Assembly: GCA_964640085.1 (NCBI GenBank) | Contig: CAZXFA010000010.1 | Location: 9,805 to 73,804 of the forward strand | Length of the DNA: 64,000 nt | Direction: 5' to 3' | Source: an uncultured Actinomycetes bacterium | GTDB lineage: Bacteria > Actinomycetota > UBA4738 > HRBIN12 | Shown here: piece after piece, positions 6,675 to 64,000 of the stretch | Position numbering within the stretch: the stretch's first letter is position 1 | Layout: every line of letters starts with the position of its first letter | Program-made: the position numbers and the translations under genes | Notes under the pieces: model-generated | Databases searched by the model: none | Seen by the model: the letters and a program-made list of their open reading frames with translations, nothing else | What the model was told of the DNA's origin: nothing

Positions 6675-7702
<1,028 letters not shown>

Positions 7703-7747
7703 GCTCCAGGGTACCGGGTTCGGCGTCCGGACCGGGTCGCGCGCTCG

Positions 7748-8002
7748 TCAACCCTCGGGAGGTGCTTGCGGGAGCAGCCCCCGGACCGTGTCCATCGCGG
7801 CCGTCATCGCGTCGGACCGTGAGGCGCCGCCGGCCATCCCCCGGCCCACGGCGCTGCCGAGCAGGAACGACGCGAGCGGGGTGATCTTCCGCTCCACGCG
7901 GTGGGCGACGTCGCGAGCGATCCCCAGGAGCTGCGCCGTCTCCAGCTCGGAGAGTGTGTCCTCTCCCAGCGCCTCCGCCAGCTGGTCGATCCAGGACTCC
8001 AT
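7748..8002 (-). CDS. small conserved actinobacterial protein (84 aa), DUF6457-like (a family reported next to MobA/Moco genes); hypothetical
   Basis: MESWIDQLAEALGEDTLSELETAQLLGIARDVAHRVERKITPLASFLLG. A good SD (GAGGAGGG) precedes it. It lies between mttB-like and moaA and is in frame with a long spurious track ORF. Confidence 0.4.
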   Translation of the reverse strand: MESWIDQLAEALGEDTLSELETAQLLGIARDVAHRVERKITPLASFLLGSAVGRGMAGGASRSDAMTAAMDTVRGLLPQAPPEG

Positions 8003-9435: not shown

Positions 9436-9645
9436 CGCCCTCACCTCTCGGCGGTCGGACGAAGCGCCTCCCCCCACCCGGCGGCATCCTCGCTCGACCG
9501 GGTTTCCTCACGGAGCCGCGCGCCGCCGGTCCGCCCGATCCCAGCCTAGGAGCGGGGTCGGTGAGGAGCAAGGCGTCGGGCTCGACCGGCGGTCACCTCC
9601 CGCGCGACGCATCCTCGACCGATCGGTCTGGCAGGATAAGAGGCC

Positions 9646-10917
9646 GTGGATCCGCGCCGCGTTGCCGCCGTCGTGACCGTCTCGGACGGCGTGAGCCACG
9701 GCACTCGGGTCGACGAGTCGGGCGACCTGGCGGAGGCTATGCTCCGCGAGGCCGGCTTCGACGTGGTCGAGCGCGCCGTAATCCCCGACGAGCGTCCGCG
9801 GATCGAGTCCCTGCTGGTCGAGCTCGCCGACGCCAAGGCGATCCGGCTCGTCGTCACCACCGGCGGAACCGGTTTCGGACCCCGGGACGTGACGCCCGAG
9901 GCGACCCGTGCCGTGATCGATCGGGAGGCGCCCGGTCTGGCCGAGCTGATGCGCGCGCAGGGGCTGGCGAAGACGCCGCTCGCCGCGCTGTCCCGGGCCG
10001 TGGCCGGCACCCGTGGTTCGACGCTCGTGGTGAACCTCCCCGGGAGCCCGAAGGGCGTGCGCGAGAGCCTGGACGCCGCCCTCACGGTGATCCCTCACGC
10101 GGTCGAGCTGCTCGCCGGCGCGACGGGACCGCACCCCACAGGCCACGGCGAGGCCTCCGCGGTCGGGGGGACCGTGCGGGCTGGCGACCGTTCCCTCGGG
10201 TCGTCCGAGCGTCCCTGGGTCGAGGCCACGGCCGTGAAGATCCTCGAGGGGACGCCCCCGTGCCGCGTCGGCAACCGGTTCCGCGTGTCATCCGACGGAC
10301 CGGTCCAGGGCACGCTCGGGTGCGCCGAGTTCGATGCGGCGGCGGAGGAGGACGCGGCCAAGGTGCTCGCTCTCGGTGAGCCCGTCACGCGCACGTACCG
10401 GCACGAGCTGGGGTCGGTCGAGGTGTACCTCGAGCCGCATCTGCCCTCGCCGCGACTCGTCGTGGTCTCGGCGACCGAGGTGGCGCTCCACCTGCTGCGC
10501 CTCGGCCGGACCCTGCGGTACGAGACCGTGCTGGTGGAGCCGCGGTCGACCCGGGTGACCCCAGCCCAGGCCGGCGAGGCCGGCCGGCGGGTCGAGGCCG
10601 TGGCCGACGCGGCGCCGGACGAGCGGACCGATGTCGTGTTCACCGACCACGACGCGCCGGACCTCGTCGAGATGTTGGCGGCGGTCCTGCGCTCGCCGGC
10701 GCGGTTCGTCGGCGTGATGGGGAGTCGGCGCCACGTCGGCCGATACGTCGAAGAGCTCCGGGCGAGGGGGTTCGACGAGGAGGCGCTCGAACGCGTCCGT
10801 TCGCCGCTCGGGCTCGATCTCGGTGGGCAGCGGCCGGAAGAGATCGCGGTCTCGATCGCGGCCGGGCTCGTCGCCGCGCGCCACGGTCGAGACGGCGGCT
10901 GGCTCGACGCGCGGTGA
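9646..10917 (+). CDS. fusion protein: MogA/MoaB molybdopterin adenylyltransferase domain (N-terminal, about 165 aa) plus XdhC/CoxI-family Moco-insertion chaperone (XdhC_CoxI and XdhC_C Rossmann domains)
   Basis: The N-terminal part carries GGTG(F) and a MogA fold (VVTTGGTGFGPRDVTPEAT...LPGSPKG). The C-terminal part has XdhC motifs (RLVVVSATEVALHLLRLGRTLRYETVLVEPR...FVGVMGSRRHVGRYVEELRARGF...SPLGLDLGGQRPEEIAVSIAAGLVAARHG). Confidence 0.75.
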   Translation: MDPRRVAAVVTVSDGVSHGTRVDESGDLAEAMLREAGFDVVERAVIPDERPRIESLLVELADAKAIRLVVTTGGTGFGPRDVTPEATRAVIDREAPGLAELMRAQGLAKTPLAALSRAVAGTRGSTLVVNLPGSPKGVRESLDAALTVIPHAVELLAGATGPHPTGHGEASAVGGTVRAGDRSLGSSERPWVEATAVKILEGTPPCRVGNRFRVSSDGPVQGTLGCAEFDAAAEEDAAKVLALGEPVTRTYRHELGSVEVYLEPHLPSPRLVVVSATEVALHLLRLGRTLRYETVLVEPRSTRVTPAQAGEAGRRVEAVADAAPDERTDVVFTDHDAPDLVEMLAAVLRSPARFVGVMGSRRHVGRYVEELRARGFDEEALERVRSPLGLDLGGQRPEEIAVSIAAGLVAARHGRDGGWLDAR

Positions 10918-10933: not shown

Positions 10934-11710
10934 ATGAGCGGGCCCCGACGCGCGATGAGCGGGCGTCACGTACGGAAGAACCGGCGGTACTGGGAGGGCG
11001 TGAGCGAGGAGTACCAGCGGAAGCACGCGCGGCAGCTAAACCGATTCGACCGTCCTCGGTGGGGCGTGTGGGGCATCCCGGAGTCGACGCTCCGGGTATT
11101 GGGCGAGGTCCGCGGGCTGGACGTGCTCGAGTACGGCTGCGGGGCCGGTCAGTGGAGCATCGCCCTGGCCCGGATGGGGGCCCGCCCCGTGGGGCTGGAT
11201 CTCTCGCAGGCGCAGCTTCGGCACGCTGTCGAGCTCATGGCGCGCGCGGGGGTGCGCTTCCCCCTCGTGCACGCCGATGCGGAACACACCCCGTTCGCCG
11301 ATCGCAGCTTCGACGTCGTGATGTGCGATCACGGTGCGATGACCTTCGCCGACCCCCAGCGGACCGTGCCGGAGGTCGCACGGCTGCTGCGCCCGGGCGG
11401 GCTGTTCGCGTTCAACCACGCGAGCGCGTTCCACGCGCTCTGCTGGGACGATCGCCGGGACCGGGTCGCGACCCGGTTGGCGCGCGACTACTTCGACACC
11501 GGGCGATGGGACGAGGAGACCGTTGACTTCATGATGCCCTACGGGGAGTGGATCCGCCTCTTCCGGCGACACGGCCTCGAGGTCGAGGATCTGATCGAGC
11601 CGCGACCCCGGGCCGACGCCCGCACCACCTACCCCTGGTTCGCGCCGCTTGCCTGGGCCCGGCGCTTCCCCGCCGAGAGCATCTGGAAGCTGCGACGGCG
11701 TGTGGGCTGA
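10934..11710 (+). CDS. class I SAM-dependent methyltransferase
   Basis: Motif I LEYGCGAGQWS and a methyltransferase fold. The start is ambiguous (ATG 10934 or 10955, inside a duplicated GCGATGAGCGGG). The track ORF starts at 10823 but overlaps the upstream gene. Confidence 0.7.
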   Translation: MSGPRRAMSGRHVRKNRRYWEGVSEEYQRKHARQLNRFDRPRWGVWGIPESTLRVLGEVRGLDVLEYGCGAGQWSIALARMGARPVGLDLSQAQLRHAVELMARAGVRFPLVHADAEHTPFADRSFDVVMCDHGAMTFADPQRTVPEVARLLRPGGLFAFNHASAFHALCWDDRRDRVATRLARDYFDTGRWDEETVDFMMPYGEWIRLFRRHGLEVEDLIEPRPRADARTTYPWFAPLAWARRFPAESIWKLRRRVG

Positions 11711-13151
11711 CCGCGTCGGCCTCCGCGCCGGGCTGGCGTTCGCGCTCGCGGCGGGCACCCTCGTGCTCGCCGCGACCCGGCCGGCACCCGCCTCCAATCC
11801 CGACCTTCGACCCAACGTCGTCCTCATCCTGACCGACGACCAGGCGCCGGGCTCCGTGCCCCACGACCCGCCCGCGATGCCGGCGTTCCAGGCCATGGTC
11901 GAGGACCCGTCCGAGCACTGGGTGTGGTTCCCGAACGCGTTCCTTTCCACCCCGCTCTGCTGCCCCTCCCGGGCCTCGATCCTCACCGGCCGCTCGGACC
12001 TGCGGACCGGGGTCCGCACGAACCACGATGGCCACCTCCTCGATCCCACCGACAACCTCGCGGCGTGGCTGCACGACGCCGGGTACCGGACGGCCCTGAT
12101 CGGCAAGTACCTCAACGGGTACCCCTTCGACGGGCAGCCGTTGGTGCCGCCGGGATGGGACCGGTGGCTCGTGAAGCGTCAGGGGGCCCAGTCGACCGCG
12201 TACTACGACCACGTGCTGCTGGACCAGGGGTTCCCGGTCCCCTCCGGCGACGCTCCCGACGGGTACCTGACGGACGTGCTGGCGGAGGCCGCCGTGAGCT
12301 TCATCGAGGGGACGCCGGCAGATCGTCCCTTCTTCCTTATGGTGACGCCGACCGCGCCGCACCGTCCGTGGACGCCGGCGCCTCGGCACCGGGGCGCCTT
12401 CGCGGGCGTGCGCCTGGTCGAACCGCCGTCGGTCGGGGAGGAGGACGTCTCGGACAAGCCCGCCTGGGTCCGGGCCCTCCCGCCGCTCGACGAGGGGCGT
12501 CGAAAGCAGCTCGCCGGGGTCCGGGTGCGGTCGTTCGAGACCCTGCTGGCGGTGGACGACCTGGTAGCGGGGATCGTCCGGGCGCTGGAGGAACGCGACC
12601 TGCTCGGACGAACGGCGATCTTCTTCCTCACCGACAACGGGTTCTCGCTCGGCGAGCACCGCTGGCTCGGGAAGACCTGCCCGTACGAGGAGTGCATCCG
12701 CACGCCGTTCTTCGTCCGGTACCCGGGCGCCGCCGCCCGAGCGGCACCGATGCTCGTCTCGAACCTCGACCTCGCACCAACGATCGCCGAGCTGGCGGGC
12801 GTGTCTGCGTCGGACCCCGTGGACGGTCGGAGCCTCGTGCCGGTGCTGGAAGGTGAGCCGGTCGAGCCCACGGCCGGACTGTTCCTCGACTACGTCGGCG
12901 ATGCCCACGTGCCGGGGTGGTCGGCGATCCGCACGGAGGCGCTCGTCTACGTCGAGTACGTGACTGGCGAACGCGAGCTCTACGACCTGGCCGGATACCT
13001 CGGGCCGGCCGATCCGTACGAGCTGGAGAACCGGATCGGGCACCCCACGTACGGGACGGTGGTCCGTGAGCTCGCGGCGGAGTTGGGGCGTCTGCGCGAG
13101 GCTGCCACGAGCCCGAACGCGGGTCTGAGCGCGGTAGGGTTGCCGCCGTGA
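11700..13151 (+). CDS. sulfatase (arylsulfatase family, formylglycine-dependent; C-x-P-x-R motif CCPSR)
   Basis: VVLILTDDQ...[17 protein letters not shown] with an N-terminal signal-like segment. Start chosen at GTG 11700, overlapping the methyltransferase stop; ATG 11649 is the alternative. Confidence 0.8.
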
Positions 13152-14776
13152 GCCACTCGCCCGGTCCCGGCTCGCGCGTCCCGGTGCCGCGCAACCGCCT
13201 GCGGTTCTCTCGTCGCCGAACCGCTCGACGCCGGGGGTTCATCGCCTTCGCCGTGGTGGTTGCCCTGCTGATCGGTTGGCGGGCGTGGGCGGCGCTTGAT
13301 CGCGACGAGGATCGGGTCGGGGTCATGCCCACCCCCACCGGTACCACCGGCGGGGGTGGCGACGGCGACGGCGACGGTGACCGTGGTGGGGACGGGGATG
13401 ACGTCCAGCCCCAGATCGCCCCCGGCGAGACGCCCATAGAGCACGTGGTGTTCATCGTCAAGGAGAACCGGACGTTCAACCACTACTTCGCCACGTACCC
13501 CGGGGCCGAGGGCTCGACCGAGGGCGGGACGATCGAGTGCACCGAGGACGGATGCGAGGACGGGCCCGTCGTCCAGCTCACGGAGGCGGAGGACACGCAG
13601 CCGCACGACCTCACGCACTGCTTCCGCTGCGGGCTCGTCGCGATCAACGGCGGCAAGATGAACGGGTTCAACCGGATGAACGGGGTGATCCCGCAGTCTG
13701 GTGACCGCGCGCTCTTCTTCGGGCGGGACCTGTCCGGGTACAACTACCACGATCGCGACACGCTCCCGAACTACTGGGCGTACGCCGACCGCTTCGTGCT
13801 GGCCGATCACTTCTTCACGTCGATGTACGGCCCGACGCTGCCCGAGCACCTCTACACGGTCGCCGCCCAGGCCAACCACATCGTGGACAACAAGGGACAG
13901 ACGGACACCCCGGGCAGCTACTGCGACGACTCCACCGAGACCGCGACGCGGTTCATCCCCCGTGAGGTGCGGGAGAACGAGCGCCGGATCCTCCAGCTCG
14001 AGCGCGAGATCACTGCGAACGGCTCCAACACCTACGAGCTGGGGAAGTTCTGGAACCAGACCCGGCTCTGCTTCGACATCCCGGTGCTGCCCGACCAGCT
14101 CGAGGAGGCCGGGATCAGCTGGAAGTACTACGCGAACGAGAACGCGTGGATGAACGCTCTCCAGATGATCCGTCACGTCCGGTTCGGCCCGATGTGGAGG
14201 AAGGTCGAGCCCCCGGAGAACTTCGTGCGAGACGTCCGGGGGGGCGAGATGCCGCAGGTGTCCTGGATCATCCCCTCTGAGTCGTACAACGAGCACCCCG
14301 GCGGCGGGAAGAGCGTGTGTGCCGGTGAGAACTGGACCGTGCACCAGGTCAACACGATCATGGAGAGCGAGTACTGGCGCTCCACGCTGATCGTGATCGT
14401 GTGGGACGACTTCGGGGGCTTCTACGATCCGGTCCCCCCGCCGCAGACCGACGTGATGGGGCTCGGCCCTCGCACGCCGGCCCTGATCATCTCGCCGTAC
14501 ACGCGGCGGGGCGACAACCCGAACCGCGGGTACGTGGACGAGACCGTCTACGAGTTCAGCTCGGTGCTCGCCTTCATCGAGCGGCTGTTCGGGCTCGAGC
14601 CGATGACCGAGCGCGATGCCAGCGCGAACCCGCTGCTCGGGGCGCTGGAGTTCGAGCGCCCGCGGTTCAAGAAGCTGATCCTCCCGCTGCGCGACGACTG
14701 CCCCTACGGGACCTCGTTCGCCCACTTCCTCGCGAGCTGGCCCCACCTGCGGACGATCGGTAGCCCGTTCGACTGA
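13148..14776 (+). CDS. phosphoesterase family protein (phospholipase C / acid phosphatase AcpA-like)
   Basis: [24 protein letters not shown], the signature of the PLC/AcpA phosphoesterase family. N-terminal TM anchor and a Gly/Asp-rich linker. GTGA overlap with the sulfatase stop. Confidence 0.75.
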
Positions 14777-14791
14777 CGCCTGCGGTTTCGC

Positions 14792-16138
14792 TCAGCGGTT
14801 GAAGTCGAACGCCGTCCCCACGCAGTCGGTCCGCACCGGCAGTGGGTCCGGCGGCCGGGGCTCCCGCGTGAAGTCGAACGCCGAGAGCAGGGGCGTGGCG
14901 TCGCGGTCCCGGTGAGTGAGCTGGGTCAGCCCGAAGTTGTCCTCGACGAACCGCAGGACGCTGGAGAACTCGCCGAGCTCGTGCGTCACGTAGCCGCGCT
15001 TCGCGTACGGGCTGATGATCAGCAGCGGGACGCGGACCCCGAAGCCGAACCCGTCCACCTGCGGCGGCGGCACGTGGTCGTAGAAGCCCCCGTAGTCGTC
15101 CCAGGTGAGGAAGATGGCGGTGGTCTCCCACTGGGGGCCTTCCATCAAGGCGTTCACGATCTCGGTCGTCCAGTTCTCGCCGTGGCACATGCTGTACTCG
15201 GGGTGCTCGGACAGCTCGAACCGCGGCGTGACCCAGGTGACGGGCTGGAGCAGCCCCTCCCGGGCCTGGCGGACGAAGTCGTCCACCGGGAACACGTGGT
15301 TCTGCCAGATGTCCGGGTCCTCCCGGATGTGGCGGATCGCGTCGTAGGCCGACCACAGGTACCCGTTCTGCATGTTCGTGGCCGAGTAGTAGGACCAGGG
15401 GATCCCAGCCTCCATCAGCAGGTCGGCCTCCGTGATGAAGTCGAAGCACGGCGGCAGGTTCTTCACGTTGCCCTCGCGGTCCTCGACCGGGACGTAGGCC
15501 TCCTCGATTGAGTCGCACCCCCAGGCCTTGAACAGCCCGGTCCCGCGATGCCGCTCGCGTAGCAGGTCGTTGTCCTGGATCGGGTTCTCGTGCGTGCCTC
15601 CCGACTGCGCCGCGATCGTGTACAGGTGGTTCGGGAACGAGGGCCCGTGGGCGCTCGCGAAGAAGTTGTCGCCCAGGACGTACTCCCGGGCCCAGTGCCA
15701 GTAGTTCGGCAGGTCCTCGGGCAGGTACTGCGTGTACGCGTACAGGTCCGCCGCCTCGCTGATCGTGGCGAACCCGTCCATCTCCCCCTCGTTCCAGGCC
15801 TGGAGGGCGCACCGGTAGCAGTGCTTGATGTCTTCCGGGATCGCGTCGAGCGCGAGGGTCAACGGCCGCGGCTCGCCCCGATCGATCCCGACCGTGACCC
15901 CGTTCGCGCCGGGGAACCGGCCGAACATGTTGTCGAAGGTCCGGTTCTCCTTGATAACGAACACGACGTGCTTGATCGGCGTCGCGGTCTCGAGGGTCGA
16001 CGCGTCGAACGGCCCGGGCTCGGTGCCGAGGTCGAGCGCAGGGAGCGGGTCCCACTCGGGGACGTCCCGCGCGCAGGCCGCGGCGACGGCGGCGAGGGCA
16101 AGGACGAGGGCGGAGAACCGTACGACGGTCGAGCGCAC
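14792..16138 (-). CDS. phosphoesterase family protein (phospholipase C / AcpA-like), lipoprotein paralog
   Basis: [24 protein letters not shown] and a lipobox-like signal (LAAVAAAC). It converges on the paralog with only a 15-bp gap. Confidence 0.75.
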
Positions 16139-16166: not shown

Positions 16167-17579
16167 TCAAACGGGTTGGAGCTCGCGCCCCTCCGAGGTG
16201 GTCAGGTACCCGCGCCAGTAGGCCTGCCCCTCCTCGGGGAGGGTGGAGATGGGGTCGAAGTACGGGTACTCGCGCTCGAGGGCCTCCGGGTCGTCGTGCT
16301 CGATCCCGGTCCGGTAGTTCTTCCGCCAGTAGCTGATGCCCTTCACCTGGTCGTAGCCGCTCACCATGTGGACCCACCGCTTGCCGACGAACGGCACGTC
16401 GGCGACGAACCGCGGGGTCGCGAACCCCGGCAGGTACCCCATGATCGCGAACTGGAGCTCCTGCGCCTCCCAGAGCGCGAGCCGCCAGTGCTCGCTGTTG
16501 GGGATCATGTCGCACAGGTAGAAGTAGTACGGCATGACGCTCGCGTGATCCAGCAGCATGAAGCACAGCTCCAGGATCTGGTTCGGCGTGGTGTTCACCC
16601 CTCGCAGCAGGACGCCCTGGTTCCGCACGTCCCGATAGCCCATATCGAGGAGCTCGCGGACCGCCTTGCCGACCAGGGGCGTCACCTGCTGCGCGGCGTT
16701 CACGTGCGTATGGATCGCGACCTCCACGCCGCGTTCGTGCGCGCGCTTGGCGATCGACTGGTAGCCCTCCAGCACCTCGTCCTGCAGGAAGTGCTGCGGG
16801 ATCCCCATCAGGCCCTTCGTCGCGATCCGGACGTCGCGGATGTGCTCGATGTCGAACAGCTTGAACAGCCAGTCCCGGAGGCGCTTGATCGGGACGTTGG
16901 CCATGTCGCCGCCCGAGACGACGACGTCGCGCACCGACGGGGTCTTCCGAAGGTAGTCGAGCATCGCGTCCCAACGCTCGTTCTGCTTGGTCTCGAACTT
17001 GTACTTCAGGACCTGTAGCGTGTCGTTGCCCACCAGGTCCATCCGCGTGCAGTGCCCGCAGTACTGCGGGCACGTGGGGATCAGCTCGGCCAGGACCTTC
17101 GTCGGGTACCGGTGGGTCAGGCCCTCGACCGCCCACATCTCGGCCTCGTGCAGCGAGTCGCGGCTGGCCATCGGGTGGGAGGGGAACTCGGTCTCGCGGT
17201 CGCTGAACGCCGGGGCCATGTAGCGGCGCACCGGATCGTGCCGCAGGTCGGTCTCGTCCATCGTGTTGACCATCTGCGGCGGGATCAGCATCGACATCGT
17301 GGCGCGCTCCAGCTGGTCGCGCTCGATGTCCGCGTAGAGCTCCTCATCCAGGAGATCGCCGAGCGCGCGCTTGAACTCGACGAGGTTCTTGACCGAGTGG
17401 GCGCGCTGCCACTGCGCCGACCCCCATTGCTCCCGCGTGACGTCGCGGTAGCCGGGCAGGCGCGTCCAGTCCGGTTCGGCGTACTCGCGCCGGAGCGGGT
17501 ACTCGAAGGGCTGTTCGGCCGCGTGGGCGCGACCGACCTCGCGCCTGGGCCGGGTCTTCTCGGCGTGGTCCTGGCTCAT
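16167..17579 (-). CDS. KamA-family radical SAM aminomutase (lysine 2,3-aminomutase-like) with an N-terminal extension of about 110 aa
   Basis: [10 protein letters not shown] radical-SAM Cys triad and KamA-like downstream regions. Start at ATG 17579 (SD GAGGTGG); the track ORF uses GTG 17588. Confidence 0.8.
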
Positions 17580-17901
17580 CGTTCCCACCTCATCGTCACT
17601 CTAAGCCGTCGTGCGTAGGACCTCCGCGGTCGTCGAACGAACAAGGTCTAGGATGCCATCATACGCGCGGTTCGTCCGGTGAGGCGGACCTATCGGCCGA
17701 AGTTCGTCCGGCATCCTCCTTCAGCGAACACCAGGTCGGATGGGCCGCGAGCGTCGGTCCGCCTCGGGTGGTATCGTCCGGCGCGAGGGTGCAGCACACG
17801 GTTGTTCGGCAACGCGGGCAGTTCCCTCCCGGCGCTCCGGTGCCGGTGGGCCCGAAGGGCGGCGGCACAGGCCCGGACGGCCAAGGAAGGGGGGATCGCT
17901 C

Positions 17902-47567: not shown

Positions 47568-47634
47568 GCAGTCCCGTGCCGGAACTTGAACGGCCATGCA
47601 AGCCCGAAGCCTGGTCGTGTATCCTCCGCCCTGC

Positions 47635-48759
47635 ATGGCTGGTGGAGAGGTCGTCCTCGTCGATCTGGTCAAACGCTTCGCTGACGTGACCGCCGTCGAC
47701 GGGATCGACCTGGACATGCCGCCCGGTGAGTTCTTCTCGCTGCTGGGTCCCTCGGGCTGCGGGAAGACGACCACCCTCCGGCTGATCGCTGGGTTCGAAC
47801 GACCGGACGAAGGGCAGATCCTGCTCGACGGGGTCGACATGGCCCAGACGCCGCCCCACAAGCGCAACGTGAACACCGTCTTCCAGAACTACGCGCTGTT
47901 CCCTCATCTCTCGGTGGCCGATAACGTCGGGTTCGGCCTGCGGTACAAGGACGTCACCAAGCAGGAGGCGCGGAAGAAGATCGCCGAGGCGCTCGAGCTG
48001 GTGCGCATGTCCGGGCTCGAGCGACGTCGGCCATCGCAGCTGTCGGGTGGCCAGCAGCAGCGCGTGGCGTTGGCGCGGGCGCTGGTCCTGAACCCGGCGG
48101 TCCTCCTGTTGGACGAGCCGCTCGGGGCGCTGGACGCCAAGCTGCGCAAGGCCCTGCAGATCGAGCTCAAGGCCCTCCAGGAAGAGGTGGGCGTCACGTT
48201 CGTCTACGTGACCCACGACCAGGAGGAGGCGCTCACGATGTCCGACCGCCTCGCCGTGATGAGCAACGGCCGGGTCGAGCAGGTCGGCACCCCATCGGAG
48301 GTCTACGAGGAGCCCACCACCACCTACGTGGCCGACTTCCTCGGCGTCTCGAACCTGATGGACGCGCATGCCGACGGGGCCGACACGCGGGGTCACGCGA
48401 AGCTCCGGCTGGGCGAGTTCGATCTCTCGGCCGCCCGCGGCGACACCGACGCGCTCGGCGCCGTGAAGGTGGTGATCCGCCCGGAGCGGGTCCACCTGGA
48501 GGAGGCGGGATCCGGCGGCGAGAACCGCGTGCCCGGCATGGTCGAGCGGGTCGTGTACGTCGGCTCGACGATGCAGGTCATCGTGCACCTGGCCCCCGGG
48601 CAGACCCTCCAAGCATGGATCCAGAACCGTGGCGAGGGGTTGCCGTACGCCCAGGGGCATCCGGTGGCGGTGCATCTCCCCGCCGAGGCGCTCCGCATCT
48701 TGACCGATACGATCCCCGCGGCGCCGATCGAGCAGGACGACGGCGCCGCGGTCTCGTAG
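47635..48759 (+). CDS. ABC transporter ATP-binding protein (PotA-like, spermidine/putrescine type)
   Basis: Walker A GPSGCGKTT, signature LSGGQQQRVALARAL, Walker B LLLDEPL, and a C-terminal TOBE-like domain. The alternative start is ATG 47596. Confidence 0.85.
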   Translation: MAGGEVVLVDLVKRFADVTAVDGIDLDMPPGEFFSLLGPSGCGKTTTLRLIAGFERPDEGQILLDGVDMAQTPPHKRNVNTVFQNYALFPHLSVADNVGFGLRYKDVTKQEARKKIAEALELVRMSGLERRRPSQLSGGQQQRVALARALVLNPAVLLLDEPLGALDAKLRKALQIELKALQEEVGVTFVYVTHDQEEALTMSDRLAVMSNGRVEQVGTPSEVYEEPTTTYVADFLGVSNLMDAHADGADTRGHAKLRLGEFDLSAARGDTDALGAVKVVIRPERVHLEEAGSGGENRVPGMVERVVYVGSTMQVIVHLAPGQTLQAWIQNRGEGLPYAQGHPVAVHLPAEALRILTDTIPAAPIEQDDGAAVS

Positions 48760-52150: not shown

Positions 52151-52984
52151 ATGGCCCCCTCGATCCCGGAATCGCCGCTGCTCGTCGAGGATCTCGGCCC
52201 GATCCGCCGGCTCACGCTCAACCGCCCCGCCTCCCTGAACGCGCTCAACGGCGAGCTGATGGACGCGCTGCTGGCCGCCATCGAGGGGTCCGCCGACGAT
52301 GGGTCGGTCCGCGTCGTGATCCTCCGCGGGGCGGGGCGGGCCTTCTGCGCCGGCTACGACCTCAACGAGGACGCCGCCGGTGGGCGGATGGACTCGGCCG
52401 AGTGGCACCGCGTGCTCAAGCACGACAACGATCGGATGCTGCGGATCTGGGAGCATCCGAAGCCCGTGATGGCCAGCGTCCACGGCTACTGCCTGGCCGG
52501 CGGGACCGACCTCATGCTCGCCTGCGATCTGGCCGTCGCCGCCGATGACGCGATGTTCGGGTACGTGGACGTCCGGTTCGGGTCCGGGGTGGTCTCGATG
52601 TTCCTGCCTTGGGTGGTCGGTGCCCGAGCCGCCAAGGAGCTGCTGCTCACGGGCGAGGACCGGGTTCCCGCCTCCGAGGCGCTCCGGTTCGGGCTGGTGA
52701 ACCGGGTGGTTCCCCGGGACGAGCTCGACGCGGCCACCCTGGCGCTGGCCCAGGAGATCGCCAAGAACGAGCCTTGGGTCGTGCAGGCGACCAAGCGCTC
52801 GGTGAACCGGGCGTGGGAGGTGGCCGGGTTCCGCGAAGCGATGGAGGCCAACGTCGAGATCGACGTGATGATCGAGGCTGCGAACCTCCCGGCCCGGGAC
52901 GACTTCCGCCGAATCACGCAGGAGCAGGGTCTCAAGGCGGCGATCGCCTGGCGAGACGCGCGGTACCGCGAGGGGAACCCGTGA
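52151..52984 (+). CDS. enoyl-CoA hydratase/isomerase (crotonase) family protein
   Basis: ILRGAGRAFCAGYDLNE oxyanion-hole motif and a crotonase fold. Confidence 0.85.
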   Translation: MAPSIPESPLLVEDLGPIRRLTLNRPASLNALNGELMDALLAAIEGSADDGSVRVVILRGAGRAFCAGYDLNEDAAGGRMDSAEWHRVLKHDNDRMLRIWEHPKPVMASVHGYCLAGGTDLMLACDLAVAADDAMFGYVDVRFGSGVVSMFLPWVVGARAAKELLLTGEDRVPASEALRFGLVNRVVPRDELDAATLALAQEIAKNEPWVVQATKRSVNRAWEVAGFREAMEANVEIDVMIEAANLPARDDFRRITQEQGLKAAIAWRDARYREGNP

Positions 52985-55086
52985 CCGCTTGGGATCTCGG
53001 CGCGCTCCTCGCGCCGAGGTCGATCGCCATCGTCGGCGCCTCCGAGTCGCCCGATTCGTGGGCGCCCGAGATCCATCGCTCCCTCCGGCATCTCGGGTTC
53101 GACGGGGAGCTGTACCCGATCAACCCGAAGTACGACGAGGTCTGGGGACGACCGTGTCTCGGCGGGATCGCCGAGCTGCCGCCGGGCGGCGTCGACCTGC
53201 TCGTGTTCGTGATCCCGGCCCGGGCGGTGGTCCGGATGATCGACGACTGTTCCCGAGCTGGGGTGCGCTCGATCATGGTCGTGTCCTCGGGGTTCGCCGA
53301 GGCGGGCGAAGGCGGGAAGGCGCTCCAGGAGGAGCTCCGAGGGGCCGCCCTCCGGAACCGGATCCCCATCCTCGGACCCAACGTGGAAGGGTTCGTGAAC
53401 CACGTCGACGGCGTGGCACCGTACGGGACGACGCCGCCGCCCGAGCCGATCCCGGGCTCGATCTCGGTGATCAGCCAGAGCGGGACGGTCGCCTGGACGA
53501 TGGGACAGCTCGCCTCCGACCGCGGCGTGGGCCTGCGGATCCTGCTCGGCGTGGGGAACGAGGCGGTCCTCGGGCTCGGCGAGATGTTCGAGTGGGCCGC
53601 GGAGGATCGGCACACGCGGGTGGTCGCCTCCTACCTGGAGACGATGCGAGACGTGGAGGCCATCGGTCGCGGGCTCGATGCGCTCCGCGCGGCAACGGTC
53701 CCCGTCCTCGTGTGCGCGCCCGCGGGTCGGAGCGAGGCCGCCCGGCGCTCGATCGTCGCCCACACCGGGGCGCTGGCGGGCAACACGGCCCTGCGCGACG
53801 CGTGGCTGGGCGGTCGGGGCGCGATCCTGGTCGAGGATCCGGTGACGATGTTCGAGGCCGCTGTCCTGCTCACGTACCATCGCAGGCTGCGGACGCACGG
53901 TGTGGCGGCGGCGCTCCAGTCCGGCGGGGCCTGCACGTTGTTCGCGGAGGCCAGCGGAGCCCAGGCGCTCTCCCTCCCCGAGCTGGCGCCGGCGACCAGG
54001 GCGAAGCTCCGACAGGCTCTGCCGCACTTCGCCTCGCAGAACAACCCGCTCGACGTCACGGGCCAGGCGGCGGTGGAGACCGAGATGTTCGCCGGCGCGC
54101 TCGAGGCGCTTGCCGAGGATCCACAGGTGGGCTTCGTGGCCTTCGACGCGTTCCCCCCTCGACTGGAGGACGAGGGGGTGTGGGCGGAGCCCGTGCTCCG
54201 AGCGGCCCGGGAGCTCCAGCGGAGGACGGGGGTCGTGTTCGCCTCGGTCGCGATGAGCGCCCTGTCCTACGGCACCGCTGCCCGGCGCTTCGTGGAGCGC
54301 GCCCGGCTCCCCTTCCTCCAGGGTCATCGGGCGACCGCCGGTGCGATCCGCGCGCTCGTCGATCTCCAAGGGGTGCGCCGGCGGGCGGTCGTGGACCTCC
54401 CTCCCCATCCGAACCGGACGAAGGCGCTGCGGGTGCTTCGGGGACGCTCGGGCCCGCTCGACGAGGCGCTCGGGGCCCGGCTGCTCGAGCTCTACGGCGT
54501 GCGGCGCCCGAGGGAGGTCGTGGTGCGGACCCCGGAAGCCGCGGCTCGAGCCGCCCGCTCGCTGGGGTTCCCGGTGGCGGTGAAGGCCCTCGCCGCCGAG
54601 CTGCCGCACAAGGCAAAGCTCGGCGGGGTCCGGCTCGGCCTGTCGAACGCGACGGACGTCGAGGTCGCCGCCGCCGAGGTCCTCCAGGCGGCCCGTCGGG
54701 CTGGCGCCAGGACGCCGCGGACGCTCGTCCAGCGGATGGCGAGCGGGGCCGAGGTCCTGGTCGGTGCCGTGGTCGACGATCGGTTCGGCGCCCTGGTGAC
54801 GGCTCGTCCGGGCGGGGCGGTGGCCGAGGCGGGGAGCGCGGTGTTCGTCCCGGCACCCCTCACACCCGCGCAGGCTCGCCGCTACGCCGAGGAGCAGGGC
54901 GCCCGGTGCGGGCTCGACCTGCAGCGCCACGACGTGCGGGCCTTCGCTCGCGCGCTGACCGGGATCGCGCGGGCGGCGCACGACCTGCGCGACCGGTTGG
55001 CCTCGCTGGAGGCCAATCCTCTGCTGGTCGGGGAGCGGGGGGCGGTCGCCGTGGACGCGCTGGCCGAGGCCCGGTCGCCCCGGTGA
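52981..55086 (+). CDS. ADP-forming acyl-CoA (acetate--CoA) ligase, fused alpha/beta subunits (CoA-binding, CoA-ligase and ATP-grasp domains)
   Basis: SIAIVGASESPDSWAPEI (CoA-binding), PILGPNVEGFVN, and a C-terminal ATP-grasp. GTG 52981 overlaps the crotonase stop (GTGA) with SD GAGGGG. Confidence 0.85.
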   Translation: MTAWDLGALLAPRSIAIVGASESPDSWAPEIHRSLRHLGFDGELYPINPKYDEVWGRPCLGGIAELPPGGVDLLVFVIPARAVVRMIDDCSRAGVRSIMVVSSGFAEAGEGGKALQEELRGAALRNRIPILGPNVEGFVNHVDGVAPYGTTPPPEPIPGSISVISQSGTVAWTMGQLASDRGVGLRILLGVGNEAVLGLGEMFEWAAEDRHTRVVASYLETMRDVEAIGRGLDALRAATVPVLVCAPAGRSEAARRSIVAHTGALAGNTALRDAWLGGRGAILVEDPVTMFEAAVLLTYHRRLRTHGVAAALQSGGACTLFAEASGAQALSLPELAPATRAKLRQALPHFASQNNPLDVTGQAAVETEMFAGALEALAEDPQVGFVAFDAFPPRLEDEGVWAEPVLRAARELQRRTGVVFASVAMSALSYGTAARRFVERARLPFLQGHRATAGAIRALVDLQGVRRRAVVDLPPHPNRTKALRVLRGRSGPLDEALGARLLELYGVRRPREVVVRTPEAAARAARSLGFPVAVKALAAELPHKAKLGGVRLGLSNATDVEVAAAEVLQAARRAGARTPRTLVQRMASGAEVLVGAVVDDRFGALVTARPGGAVAEAGSAVFVPAPLTPAQARRYAEEQGARCGLDLQRHDVRAFARALTGIARAAHDLRDRLASLEANPLLVGERGAVAVDALAEARSPR

Positions 55087-62597: not shown

Positions 62598-64000
62598 GTG
62601 AGCGCTGGGATCGTGTCCGCGGAGGAGCGGACCGCGCTCGAGCGCATGCTCGAGGCGCGCTCGGTCGCAGTGATCGGGGCGAGCGGGCGCGAGGGCACGG
62701 TCGGGCGCCAGACGATGGTCGAGCTGCTCGACAAGGGCCGGTTCGACGGACCCGTCTTCCCGGTGAACCCGCGGTACGACGAGCTGTTCGGGCATCGCTG
62801 CTACGGGTCGATCGCCGAGGTCCCCGAGCCGGTGGACCTCGCCGTGATCTCCCTCGCCAACACGCTGCTGGAGGACACGCTCGCGGCGTGCGCGGCAGCC
62901 GGCGTCGGCTCCGCCGTGATCTACGCCAGCGGGTACGAGGAGCCCCCGGAGGGGACGCCGCCCCTGACCGAACGCCTCGCGACTATCGCTCGGGACGCGG
63001 GGATGGCGATCTGCGGCGGCAACTGCATGGGGTTCGTCAACGTGGAGTGCGGGCTGCGGGCGACCGGTTGGGAGGAGCCGGCCGTGATCGAGCCCGGCGG
63101 CATCGCGTTCGTGAGCCACTCGGGTTCGGCGTTCGCGGCGTTCCTCCACAACGACCGGAACCTACGCTTCAACCTCGCTGTGTCCTCGGGGCAGGAGTTC
63201 GTCACGACGACCGCGGACTACATGACCTACGCGCTCGGCCTGGAGAGCACCCGCACGATCGGGCTGTTCGTCGAGACGATCCGGGATCCACGGACGTTCG
63301 TCGCGGCGATGGGGATGGCCAACGAGCGCGATGTCCCGGTCGTGATCCTGAAGGTGGGGAGGGAGGCGTTCACCCGGGAGATGGTCACGGCGCACTCGGG
63401 GGCCCTGGCTGGCGAGGATGGTGCGTACGAGGCGCTGTTCGAGGCGTACGGGGTCCACCGGGTGGAGTCGCTCGACGAGATGGCCGACACGCTGGCGCTA
63501 TTCGAGGCGGGCCGGCGTGCGGGGCCGGGCGCGCTCGCGACCGCGCACGATTCGGGCGGCGAGCGCGCGATGACGATCGACGCCGCGGCGTCGGCAGGGG
63601 TGCCGCTCGCGGCGCTCGAGCCGGAGACCGTGCAGCGGCTCGAGAGCCTGCTCGACCCGGGGTTGCCGGCCGTGAACCCGCTGGACTTCTGGGGGACGGG
63701 TCGAGAGGCGGGCGAGGTCATCACGGGCTCGCTCCGCGCACTGGTCGAGGATCCGAACGTGGCCGCGCTGGCGTTCGGCGTCGACATGGTCACGGACGAT
63801 GCGGACGAGGAGGGCTACTTCGCCTGCTTCCTGCGTGTCTGGCCCGAGACCGACAAGCCGATGGCGATGCTGAGCAACTTCGCCGGCGGGATCGACCGGA
63901 ACGACGTGCTGCGGATCCACGCGGCGGGGGCGCCGACGCTCGAGGGGACGCTCACCGGCCTGGCCGCGTTCCGGCACCTGTTCGAGCACCGCGACCACCG
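62598..64000 (+). CDS. ADP-forming acyl-CoA synthetase paralog (CoA-binding, CoA-ligase domains), 3' end beyond the window
   Basis: Not in the ORF track because it has no stop in the window. Translation from GTG 62598 reads VSAGIVSAEERTALERMLEARSVAVIGASGREGTVGRQ...PVNPRYDEL...CGGNCMGFVN..., which parallels the 52981 gene. Confidence 0.7.
   Translation, partial: MSAGIVSAEERTALERMLEARSVAVIGASGREGTVGRQTMVELLDKGRFDGPVFPVNPRYDELFGHRCYGSIAEVPEPVDLAVISLANTLLEDTLAACAAAGVGSAVIYASGYEEPPEGTPPLTERLATIARDAGMAICGGNCMGFVNVECGLRATGWEEPAVIEPGGIAFVSHSGSAFAAFLHNDRNLRFNLAVSSGQEFVTTTADYMTYALGLESTRTIGLFVETIRDPRTFVAAMGMANERDVPVVILKVGREAFTREMVTAHSGALAGEDGAYEALFEAYGVHRVESLDEMADTLALFEAGRRAGPGALATAHDSGGERAMTIDAAASAGVPLAALEPETVQRLESLLDPGLPAVNPLDFWGTGREAGEVITGSLRALVEDPNVAALAFGVDMVTDDADEEGYFACFLRVWPETDKPMAMLSNFAGGIDRNDVLRIHAAGAPTLEGTLTGLAAFRHLFEHRDH

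Follow-up and report, generated by a model that had tools for sequence, protein, structure and literature searches.

Fusion of a MogA-type domain and an XdhC-type domain pair in a single protein of soil Actinomycetota

The window analysed here is a 64,000-nucleotide stretch of DNA from an uncultured Actinomycetes bacterium (GenBank assembly GCA_964640085.1, contig CAZXFA010000010.1, positions 9,805 to 73,804 of the forward strand). It carries a gene whose single product joins a MogA-type molybdopterin (MPT) adenylyltransferase domain to the XdhC_CoxI and XdhC_C domains that characterize XdhC-type carriers of the molybdenum cofactor (Moco). The gene and its parts are as follows (aa, amino acids).

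9633..9643 (+), Shine-Dalgarno-like purine-rich stretch AGGATAAGAGG, read from the sequence, just 5' of the GTG
9646..10917 (+), mogA–xdhC fusion gene; GTG start, 423 aa plus stop, no internal stop
9646..10119 (+), MogA/Cnx1G-type molybdopterin adenylyltransferase domain, aa 1-158, assigned by PF00994, TIGR00177, PDB matches and fold
10120..10206 (+), flexible interdomain linker, aa 159-187, with a conserved HPTGH motif at its start
10204..10398 (+), XdhC_CoxI domain (PF02625), aa 187-251, with the signature cysteine C226
10456..10866 (+), XdhC_C Rossmann-like domain (PF13478), aa 271-407, matching 2we7/2we8

All three Pfam domains of the fusion protein exceed their gathering scores, and each spans nearly the whole of its profile. 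The start codon falls in the same alignment column as the N-termini of the homologues, and the GC content at third codon positions (GC3) stays at 0.86-0.92, in one frame, over the MogA, linker, XdhC_CoxI and XdhC_C segments. A preliminary description of this DNA had read the gene as a complete MogA-type domain and a complete XdhC_CoxI/XdhC_C pair in one open reading frame (ORF), and had named a stop or frameshift between the halves, or a C-terminal half unlike XdhC, as grounds for doubt. The Pfam scan finds MoCF_biosynth, XdhC_CoxI and XdhC_C, the C-terminal half is XdhC-like, conservation and intact key residues (below) agree with this, and the ORF contains neither stop nor frameshift, with even GC3 throughout.

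An artefact, in which a frameshift or an error of sequencing or assembly joined two neighbouring genes, is extremely improbable. The frame from 9646 to 10917 is single, with uniform GC3 and without stops; a Logan contig assembled independently encodes an identical fusion protein; the same architecture recurs in at least 120 clusters drawn from NCBI, JGI, ENA and Logan; and the stand-alone mogA loci of relatives have no neighbouring xdhC that could have merged. No point in support of an artefact was found, and the intact frame, the GC3, the independent contig and the homologous clusters effectively rule it out.

In the N-terminal half, the MoCF_biosynth domain (PF00994) covers aa 8-148 with an E value of 1.7e-31 and 109 bits (gathering score 26.6), and TIGR00177 is passed with 117.6 bits (cut-off 85.35). 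In a sequence search of the PDB, this half matched T. thermophilus MoaB (2is8) with 160 bits, A. aeolicus Mog with 141 bits, plant Cnx1G and gephyrin-G with ~130 bits each (44-46% identity), and E. coli MogA with 98 bits, as against only ~60 bits for E. coli MoaB. A Foldseek search with an AlphaFold2 model likewise placed the MogA half with Cnx1G (1uuy, 1o8q) and 2is8, with target-normalised template-modelling (TM) scores of 0.85-0.86 and a root-mean-square deviation (rmsd) of ~2.1 Å; 1uuy is Cnx1G with bound adenylated molybdopterin (MPT-AMP). By sequence comparison, the N-terminal half resembles the active adenylyltransferases Cnx1G and gephyrin-G far more closely than it resembles E. coli MoaB.

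D48 and D81 of the fusion protein align with D49 and D82 of E. coli MogA (the reference sequence agreed with 1di6 at 194/195 positions), which we take to be the aspartates that cannot be substituted without loss of activity. Among 19 aligned fused proteins sharing 49-85% identity, S13-D14, D48, T71/G73-G76, P79-T87 and N130-P135 are invariant, with D81 and the motifs TTGGTG, RDVTPEAT and NLPGSP unchanged. In addition, the N-terminal half is better conserved than the C-terminal half (66-77% vs 60-73% identity). These results suggest that the N-terminal module is a catalytically competent enzyme of the MogA/Cnx1G type, with a predicted adenylyltransferase activity.

Alternatively, the MoCF_biosynth domain might be a pterin-binding or oligomerisation add-on like E. 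coli MoaB, catalysis being left to a separate MogA, and might have replaced the extra N-terminal module of the long XdhC proteins (2we7, 3on5). The second N-terminal XdhC_CoxI-like segment of 2we7 is indeed missing in the fusion, one Foldseek alignment stretches over 324 columns of 2we7_A, but at an rmsd of 13 Å, and the score against the MogA equivalog PRK09417 lies below its cut-off (see below). Both parts of this alternative are nevertheless quite improbable, given that all catalytic and substrate-binding motifs of MogA are invariant across the family, that the domain is far nearer to the active Cnx1G, gephyrin-G and Mog than to E. coli MoaB, and that it is the more conserved half. Since the active site is invariant, a purely structural role of the MogA domain is unlikely.

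For the C-terminal half, XdhC_C (PF13478) was matched with an E value of 3.7e-28 and 99 bits (gathering score 29.7). XdhC_CoxI (PF02625) was a marginal pass (E value 5.9e-6, 26.6 bits vs a gathering score of 24.3) and scored higher in relatives, for example 50.6 bits in the distant fused homologue P0125. By sequence, this half matches 2we7/2we8 with 97 bits. In the Foldseek search, the C-terminal module matched 2we8_A with an E value of 9e-18, a probability of 1.0 and 34% identity over 241 columns, and 3on5 was likewise matched by fold. Among the 19 fused sequences, G222-C226, F229-D230, T333-D336, G359-S360, H363, P387, G389 and G393 are invariant. Within the GTLGC226 motif, 'GCAEFD' was aligned by HMMER to 'GCLETD' of the SGGC motif in BH1974 (3on5). 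The near-universal cysteine of XdhC-like proteins corresponds to Cys82 of R. capsulatus XdhC (Neumann and Leimkühler, PMC2997495); from this statement in the review together with the 3on5 alignment, we infer that C226 is its counterpart.

These comparisons point to an XdhC-type carrier in the C-terminal module, which would bind molybdenum-containing molybdopterin (Mo-MPT). The proposal of the preliminary description that an early Moco-assembly activity and a Moco-carrier activity are united in one polypeptide is a fair inference from the intact domains and the conserved key residues.

The AlphaFold2 model (mean predicted local distance difference test score, pLDDT, 78; predicted TM score, pTM, 0.50) consists of two well-folded modules, joined by the linker residues 159-187 with pLDDT < 50. 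As modelled, the MogA and XdhC modules fold independently of each other. Linker length varies from ~17 to ~80 aa among the fused homologues, and H167, within the HPTGH motif at the MogA domain's end, is unchanged in 19/19 fused sequences. The linkers of the distant fused proteins P0125 and P0129 are much longer and rich in His and Asp (for example HGHDHHGHDHHGHDHERH; alignment columns ~165-260), a composition suggestive of metal binding.

In a 5.8-billion-protein collection, the cluster search returned at least 120 fused clusters. The best 120 are 379-445 aa long, with 97-100% query cover and 63-100% identity, and all contain PF00994 and PF13478. An exhaustive search of the 50%-identity representatives reduced the fused family to ~10 clusters. 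The family is therefore abundant in soil data and narrow in sequence space. When one genome per GTDB species was scanned by pattern, the full-length fusion was found in seven species-level metagenome-assembled genomes (MAGs) labelled Actinomycetota or Actinomycetes, one of which is a complete 3.45-Mb chromosome; the complete chromosome OY969934.1 is among the carriers. The same scan returned the MogA half only in Acidimicrobiales, Ilumatobacteraceae, Euzebyaceae and Dietzia, and the Rossmann part only in one Micromonosporaceae MAG. The Micromonosporaceae locus L018, a bare XdhC_C-type domain beside an unrelated gene, was uninformative.

All three domains are kept in the distant fused proteins P0124, P0125 and P0129 (49-52% identity). 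In neighbour-joining trees, the core fused clade is monophyletic for both halves; these crude trees support one origin of the core clade and do not tell whether fusion occurred independently in P0124, P0125 and P0129. For P0122, the first ~75 residues diverge from the core fused clade and the remainder, XdhC half included, falls within it, which suggests N-terminal recombination or a chimeric metagenome assembly. The fused homologue P0014 (69% identity) is labelled 'Candidatus Velamenicoccus archaeo…' at NCBI, a name that we take to denote an Omnitrophota genus; all other named matches are Actinomycetota, and the P0014 contig is probably mis-binned. P0267 (557 aa, with an apparent N-terminal extension) had no Pfam match at all and was set aside as unreliable.

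The genes closest to the fusion gene are the following.

6675..7751 (-), moaA (GTP 3',8-cyclase); TIGR02666 362 bits vs a cut-off of 284; Radical_SAM and Mob_synth_C domains
7751..7999 (-), gene for a small DUF6457 protein (PF20058, E value 5e-17), directly upstream of and abutting moaA
8044..9477 (-), gene for an MttB-superfamily methyltransferase (PF06253, E value 1.8e-145)
10934..11710 (+), gene for a class I S-adenosylmethionine (SAM)-dependent methyltransferase (Methyltransf_11/25), probable ATG at 10934, directly 3' of the fusion gene

The moaA gene is syntenic with the fusion in L002, L004, L005, L007, L023 and L025, and the DUF6457 gene occupies the same position in L002, L004, L007 and L025. 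Relatives of the DUF6457 protein are all stand-alone and 84-100 aa long, and a search for literature on this family found none. The other fusion loci share a pattern of a Crp-like regulator, moaA and the DUF6457 gene on one strand, and, divergently, the fusion, methyltransferase, sulfatase and PF04185 phosphoesterase genes. The mttB-like gene had no tblastn match in any of the nine related fusion loci, and is therefore a window-specific insertion between the DUF6457 gene and the fusion, outside the conserved unit. The fusion had been described as facing an mttB-like, DUF6457-like, moaA operon; these genes are real and lie on the minus strand, but the mttB-like member is absent from every other locus. 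The mttB-like gene is an uninterrupted ORF that lacks in-frame amber codons and stays under the cut-off of TIGR02369 (trimethylamine methyltransferase), and so it is probably a non-pyrrolysine MttB homologue.

On the 3' side of the fusion, the SAM methyltransferase gene is syntenic in L001-L005, L007, L023 and L025; in the last two of these, the gene as called overlaps with the end of the fusion. It opens a conserved run at 10934..16138, which continues with a sulfatase and two paralogous PF04185 phosphoesterases; the two paralogues are convergent, at 13148..14776 (+) and 14792..16138 (-). A 473-aa ORF at 16167..17588 (-) with a GC3 of 0.96 has no Pfam match; its counterpart, a gene of 474-475 aa that also has no Pfam match, lies beside the PF04185 phosphoesterase in L023 and L025.

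By rough gene calling from GC3, and with 26 proteins of the window scanned against Pfam, no further Moco gene or molybdoenzyme was found, in agreement with the earlier remark that no enzyme of the xanthine dehydrogenase family lies in the window. No Rfam family was matched in the window, and hence no Moco riboswitch. An ATP-binding cassette (ABC) ATPase with TOBE_2 at 47596..48759, near a putative permease and a solute-binding gene, shows no specific link to molybdate. Genes with CoA_binding and Succ_CoA_lig domains lie at 52609..55086 (+), which also has ATP-grasp_5 (ADP-forming acyl-CoA synthetase type), and at 62598..63998 (+), which runs past the window end; both are near enoyl-CoA-hydratase-like and acyl-CoA dehydrogenase genes. 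The distant P0125 and P0129 (loci L034-L037) have unrelated neighbourhoods without Moco genes or molybdoenzymes. Over ~10 contexts, namely the core clade loci L001-L007, L023 and L025 and those of P0125 and P0129, no molybdoenzyme was found beside the fusion.

These contexts bear on whether the fusion serves one enzyme, as in the dedicated Moco delivery route that had been put forward, or the pathway as a whole. As a system-specific chaperone, it would be the dedicated maturation factor of one xanthine-oxidase-family enzyme encoded at a distance, for example a CoxL-type CO dehydrogenase or an aldehyde dehydrogenase. The best structural match, 2we8, is a homologue of M. tuberculosis Rv0376c, which we presume to lie beside a cox-like cluster. 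Moreover, XdhC-family proteins are classically system-specific and encoded in the operon of their client (PMC2997495). No such enzyme is adjacent to the fusion, however, in the window, in L001-L007, L023 and L025 or in the distant fused loci, and its conserved partner is the general gene moaA. MogA, furthermore, serves the whole pathway, and fusing it to a single-client chaperone would bind all Moco synthesis to one client. We thus consider a dedicated route unlikely. A general rather than enzyme-specific role is favoured by moaA–DUF6457 as the conserved neighbour on the divergent side, and by the lack of an adjacent molybdoenzyme in all contexts examined.

The stand-alone relatives of the C-terminal half provide a further indication of function. 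Stand-alone XdhC_CoxI plus XdhC_C proteins of ~250 aa match residues ~190-423 of the fusion at 45-55% identity. In Candidatus Dormibacteraeota MAGs, one family of these carries the annotation 'XdhC/CoxI family protein', and its gene and the 3' end of an Aminotran_5 gene (NifS-like, with a cysteine-desulfurase fold) overlap; a moaC–mogA pair lies 4.5 kb off at this locus, with no molybdoenzyme nearby. P0131, at 55% identity the nearest of the stand-alone relatives, groups as sister of the core fused clade in the neighbour-joining tree, and its gene is directly 3' of a rhodanese-like gene. These Aminotran_5 and rhodanese-like contexts echo the published XdhC–NifS4 partnership, which suggests a link to sulfuration for this XdhC lineage.

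The ORF upstream of P0131 was also considered as a MogA remnant, which was rejected in favour of the rhodanese-like assignment. This rhodanese-like gene (L031/L032, 5274..5939) is split by an in-frame TGA after an active-site-like loop, 'VVVYCADSL'. The frame continues beyond it (…L-TGA-D-M-G-P-R-A-A-C-R…), and the stop recurs in two assemblies made independently; a pseudogene, recoding or selenocysteine could account for it. As for the origin of the fusion, no xdhC-like sequence was found in the flanks of the stand-alone mogA loci L008-L017 and L019-L021. A split ancestor with adjacent mogA and xdhC has thus left no trace in the stand-alone mogA loci of relatives, and nothing found indicates that adjacent genes gave rise to the fusion.

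In the established pathway, MogA makes MPT-AMP, which MoeA uses for molybdenum insertion, and XdhC receives Mo-MPT straight from the enzyme that forms Moco and impedes its passage to MobA (PMC2997495, PMC13653126). XdhC further acts as a sulfuration platform, on which Moco is sulfurated with NifS4 as partner, and delivers the cofactor to xanthine-oxidase-family enzymes; a MoeA/MogA/MobA/XdhC complex has been suggested by the authors of the review (PMC2997495, PMC13653126).

On this basis, we propose that the fusion is a general tether that flanks MoeA with the donor of MPT-AMP and the acceptor of Moco and supplies the branch leading to sulfurated Moco, rather than the private chaperone of one enzyme. 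We put the probability of this reading at about 0.5. The N-terminal module would adenylate MPT to MPT-AMP, and MoeA would use MPT-AMP and release Mo-MPT, so that the fusion would tether the substrate donor of MoeA to its product acceptor; both modules could dock on one MoeA dimer. The XdhC module would capture the new Moco at once and protect it. A cysteine desulfurase or sulfurtransferase would then sulfurate the bound Moco, which would go on to apoenzymes of the xanthine-oxidase family. Capture by the XdhC module may bias flux away from MobA and bis-MGD (bis-molybdopterin guanine dinucleotide). As such, the fusion would serve the pathway in general, within a narrow clade of soil Actinomycetota.

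The flow of cofactor might also run in the reverse direction, with the XdhC-like module holding or protecting metal-free MPT and handing it to the attached MogA site for adenylation. For R. capsulatus XdhC, the affinities for MPT and Mo-MPT are the same (dissociation constant, Kd, ~3.5 µM; PMC2997495), a direct tether most simply favours hand-over between the fused modules, and no moeA is nearby. On the other hand, the signature cysteine does not vary, the coupling of the nearest stand-alone relatives to a cysteine-desulfurase-like or rhodanese-like gene points to sulfuration of finished Moco, and the published transfer runs from MoeA to XdhC (PMC2997495, PMC13653126). The reverse direction is accordingly doubtful. 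A more speculative idea, which we also hold to be improbable, is that a trimer-forming G-type domain combined with a dimer-forming XdhC module builds a gephyrin-like scaffold for a Moco 'metabolon' that serves as a client-independent delivery hub, or, in a variant, that its XdhC module is the MPT donor to MogA.

Several observations weigh against the tether proposal or against the family assignments beneath it. The first Rossmann loop of XdhC_C reads SAT in the fusion and so differs from GAG, which we assume to be typical of the family. For the curated xanthine dehydrogenase model TIGR02964 (xanthine_xdhC; 58.8 vs a cut-off of 161.6) and for NF045664 (XdhC_rel_AOR; 89.7 vs 350), scores are far too low and arise from the C-terminal Rossmann part only. 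Therefore, the protein should not be named a xanthine dehydrogenase XdhC or an aldehyde-oxidoreductase maturation factor. The N-terminal half reaches neither the MogA equivalog PRK09417 (140.6 vs 158) nor MoaB TIGR02667 (95.5 vs 222.4), models that were built on stand-alone, mostly proteobacterial proteins. By these profile scores, the fusion protein is a member of both superfamilies and of no curated NCBIfam orthologous group.

The gene contexts and the binding data add to these points. Neither moeA nor a gene for a cysteine desulfurase, mocA or a xanthine-oxidase-family enzyme was found in the scanned 64-kb window or in ±10 kb flanks of the fused loci, so that the proposed partners have to be assumed to be encoded elsewhere. 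The co-orientation of the fusion with the methyltransferase, sulfatase and phosphoesterase genes is conserved and unexplained. Finally, because R. capsulatus XdhC binds MPT as tightly as Mo-MPT, the architecture leaves the direction of flow unfixed.

A complex of MogA, MoeA, MobA and XdhC, in which the oxygen-sensitive cofactor is never free, has long been proposed, mainly from pairwise binding assays. The conserved MogA–XdhC fusion supplies independent 'Rosetta-stone' genomic evidence for the proposed coupling and lends it modest support, and together with MoeA it would make a compact construct and a convenient experimental handle on that complex. It suggests that an XdhC-type module can be a general component of the pathway, which bears on the prediction of molybdoenzyme maturation in uncultured soil bacteria. 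If the metabolon reading were true, MogA, MoeA, XdhC and the sulfur donor would be organised together. If the hub reading were true, a single delivery hub would serve every xanthine-oxidase-family enzyme in these soil Actinomycetota, in place of the operon-encoded private chaperones that are regarded as usual. Both domains, their likely chemistry and the fusing habit of Moco proteins are already known; the advance is incremental, would not surprise a specialist and does not constitute a new kind of system.

Among characterized proteins, gephyrin and Cnx1 are alike in having a MogA-type domain flexibly tethered to another late-step Moco protein, with the same logic of channelling a labile intermediate. 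Their partner is MoeA (the E domain, a metal insertase), whereas that of the fusion is XdhC, a cofactor acceptor and chaperone, and the activities joined in the fusion are not consecutive, as MoeA must act between them. Bacterial MogA–MoeA fusions (P0159, P0192) are among the closest relatives of its MogA domain.

R. capsulatus XdhC, E. coli PaoD and B. subtilis PucA have the same XdhC_CoxI and XdhC_C pair and the same signature cysteine, and the Mo-MPT binding, protection and sulfuration platform of R. capsulatus XdhC are the functions expected of the C-terminal half of the fusion. Unlike these three, the fusion is joined to MogA and lies outside any molybdoenzyme operon; it also scores well below the equivalog cut-offs, and the N-terminal part of the XdhC profile is weakly matched. 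The M. smegmatis Rv0376c homologue (2we7/2we8) is the best solved-structure match to the C-terminal half; 2we7 carries an extra N-terminal XdhC_CoxI-like module (residues ~28-81) where the fusion has its MogA domain. The eukaryotic Moco sulfurase (NifS–MOSC) and the bacterial XdhC–NifS4 pair couple a Moco carrier to a sulfur donor, as do the translationally coupled stand-alone xdhC/Aminotran_5 loci. In contrast, the fused clade has no adjacent desulfurase, and its fused partner is an adenylyltransferase rather than a sulfur donor.

Other fusions of the MogA/MoaB lineage place the present one in context. Bifunctional MoaC/MoaB (NF002947) is the best NCBIfam match of the N-terminal half (158.5 bits over the MoaB part, below the cut-off of 285), although the fusion has no MoaC domain. 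This match, together with P0224 and P0250, indicates that the MogA/MoaB lineage is a frequent fusion partner. Close MogA-type relatives are fused to MoeA, MoaC, MoaD–MoaE, MobB, a LarC-like domain and MOSC (in both orders). In P0207, a MogA-type domain is combined with the C-terminal part of a LarC-like 'Ni_insertion' domain, an unexpected partner from a nickel-pincer cofactor enzyme family. The literature also cites fusions of MoeA with MobB. MOSC–MoaB and MOSC–XdhC fusions (UniProt A6BK61, C4ZDB5), described as rare and unstudied (PMC10637980), are likewise pairings within the trio of MogA/MoaB, XdhC and MOSC; MOSC and XdhC have unrelated folds and analogous carrier roles, and the MogA–XdhC pair is not among the fusions named in that paper.

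No paper describing a MogA–XdhC fusion was found, and it is absent from the 2011, 2023 and 2026 reviews. The earlier impression that it was undescribed holds in this sense, but hundreds of copies are present in the databases under the generic names 'molybdenum cofactor synthesis domain-containing protein' or 'molybdopterin adenylyltransferase' only. Overall, the MogA–XdhC pair is a previously undescribed combination within the known fusing habit of Moco proteins.

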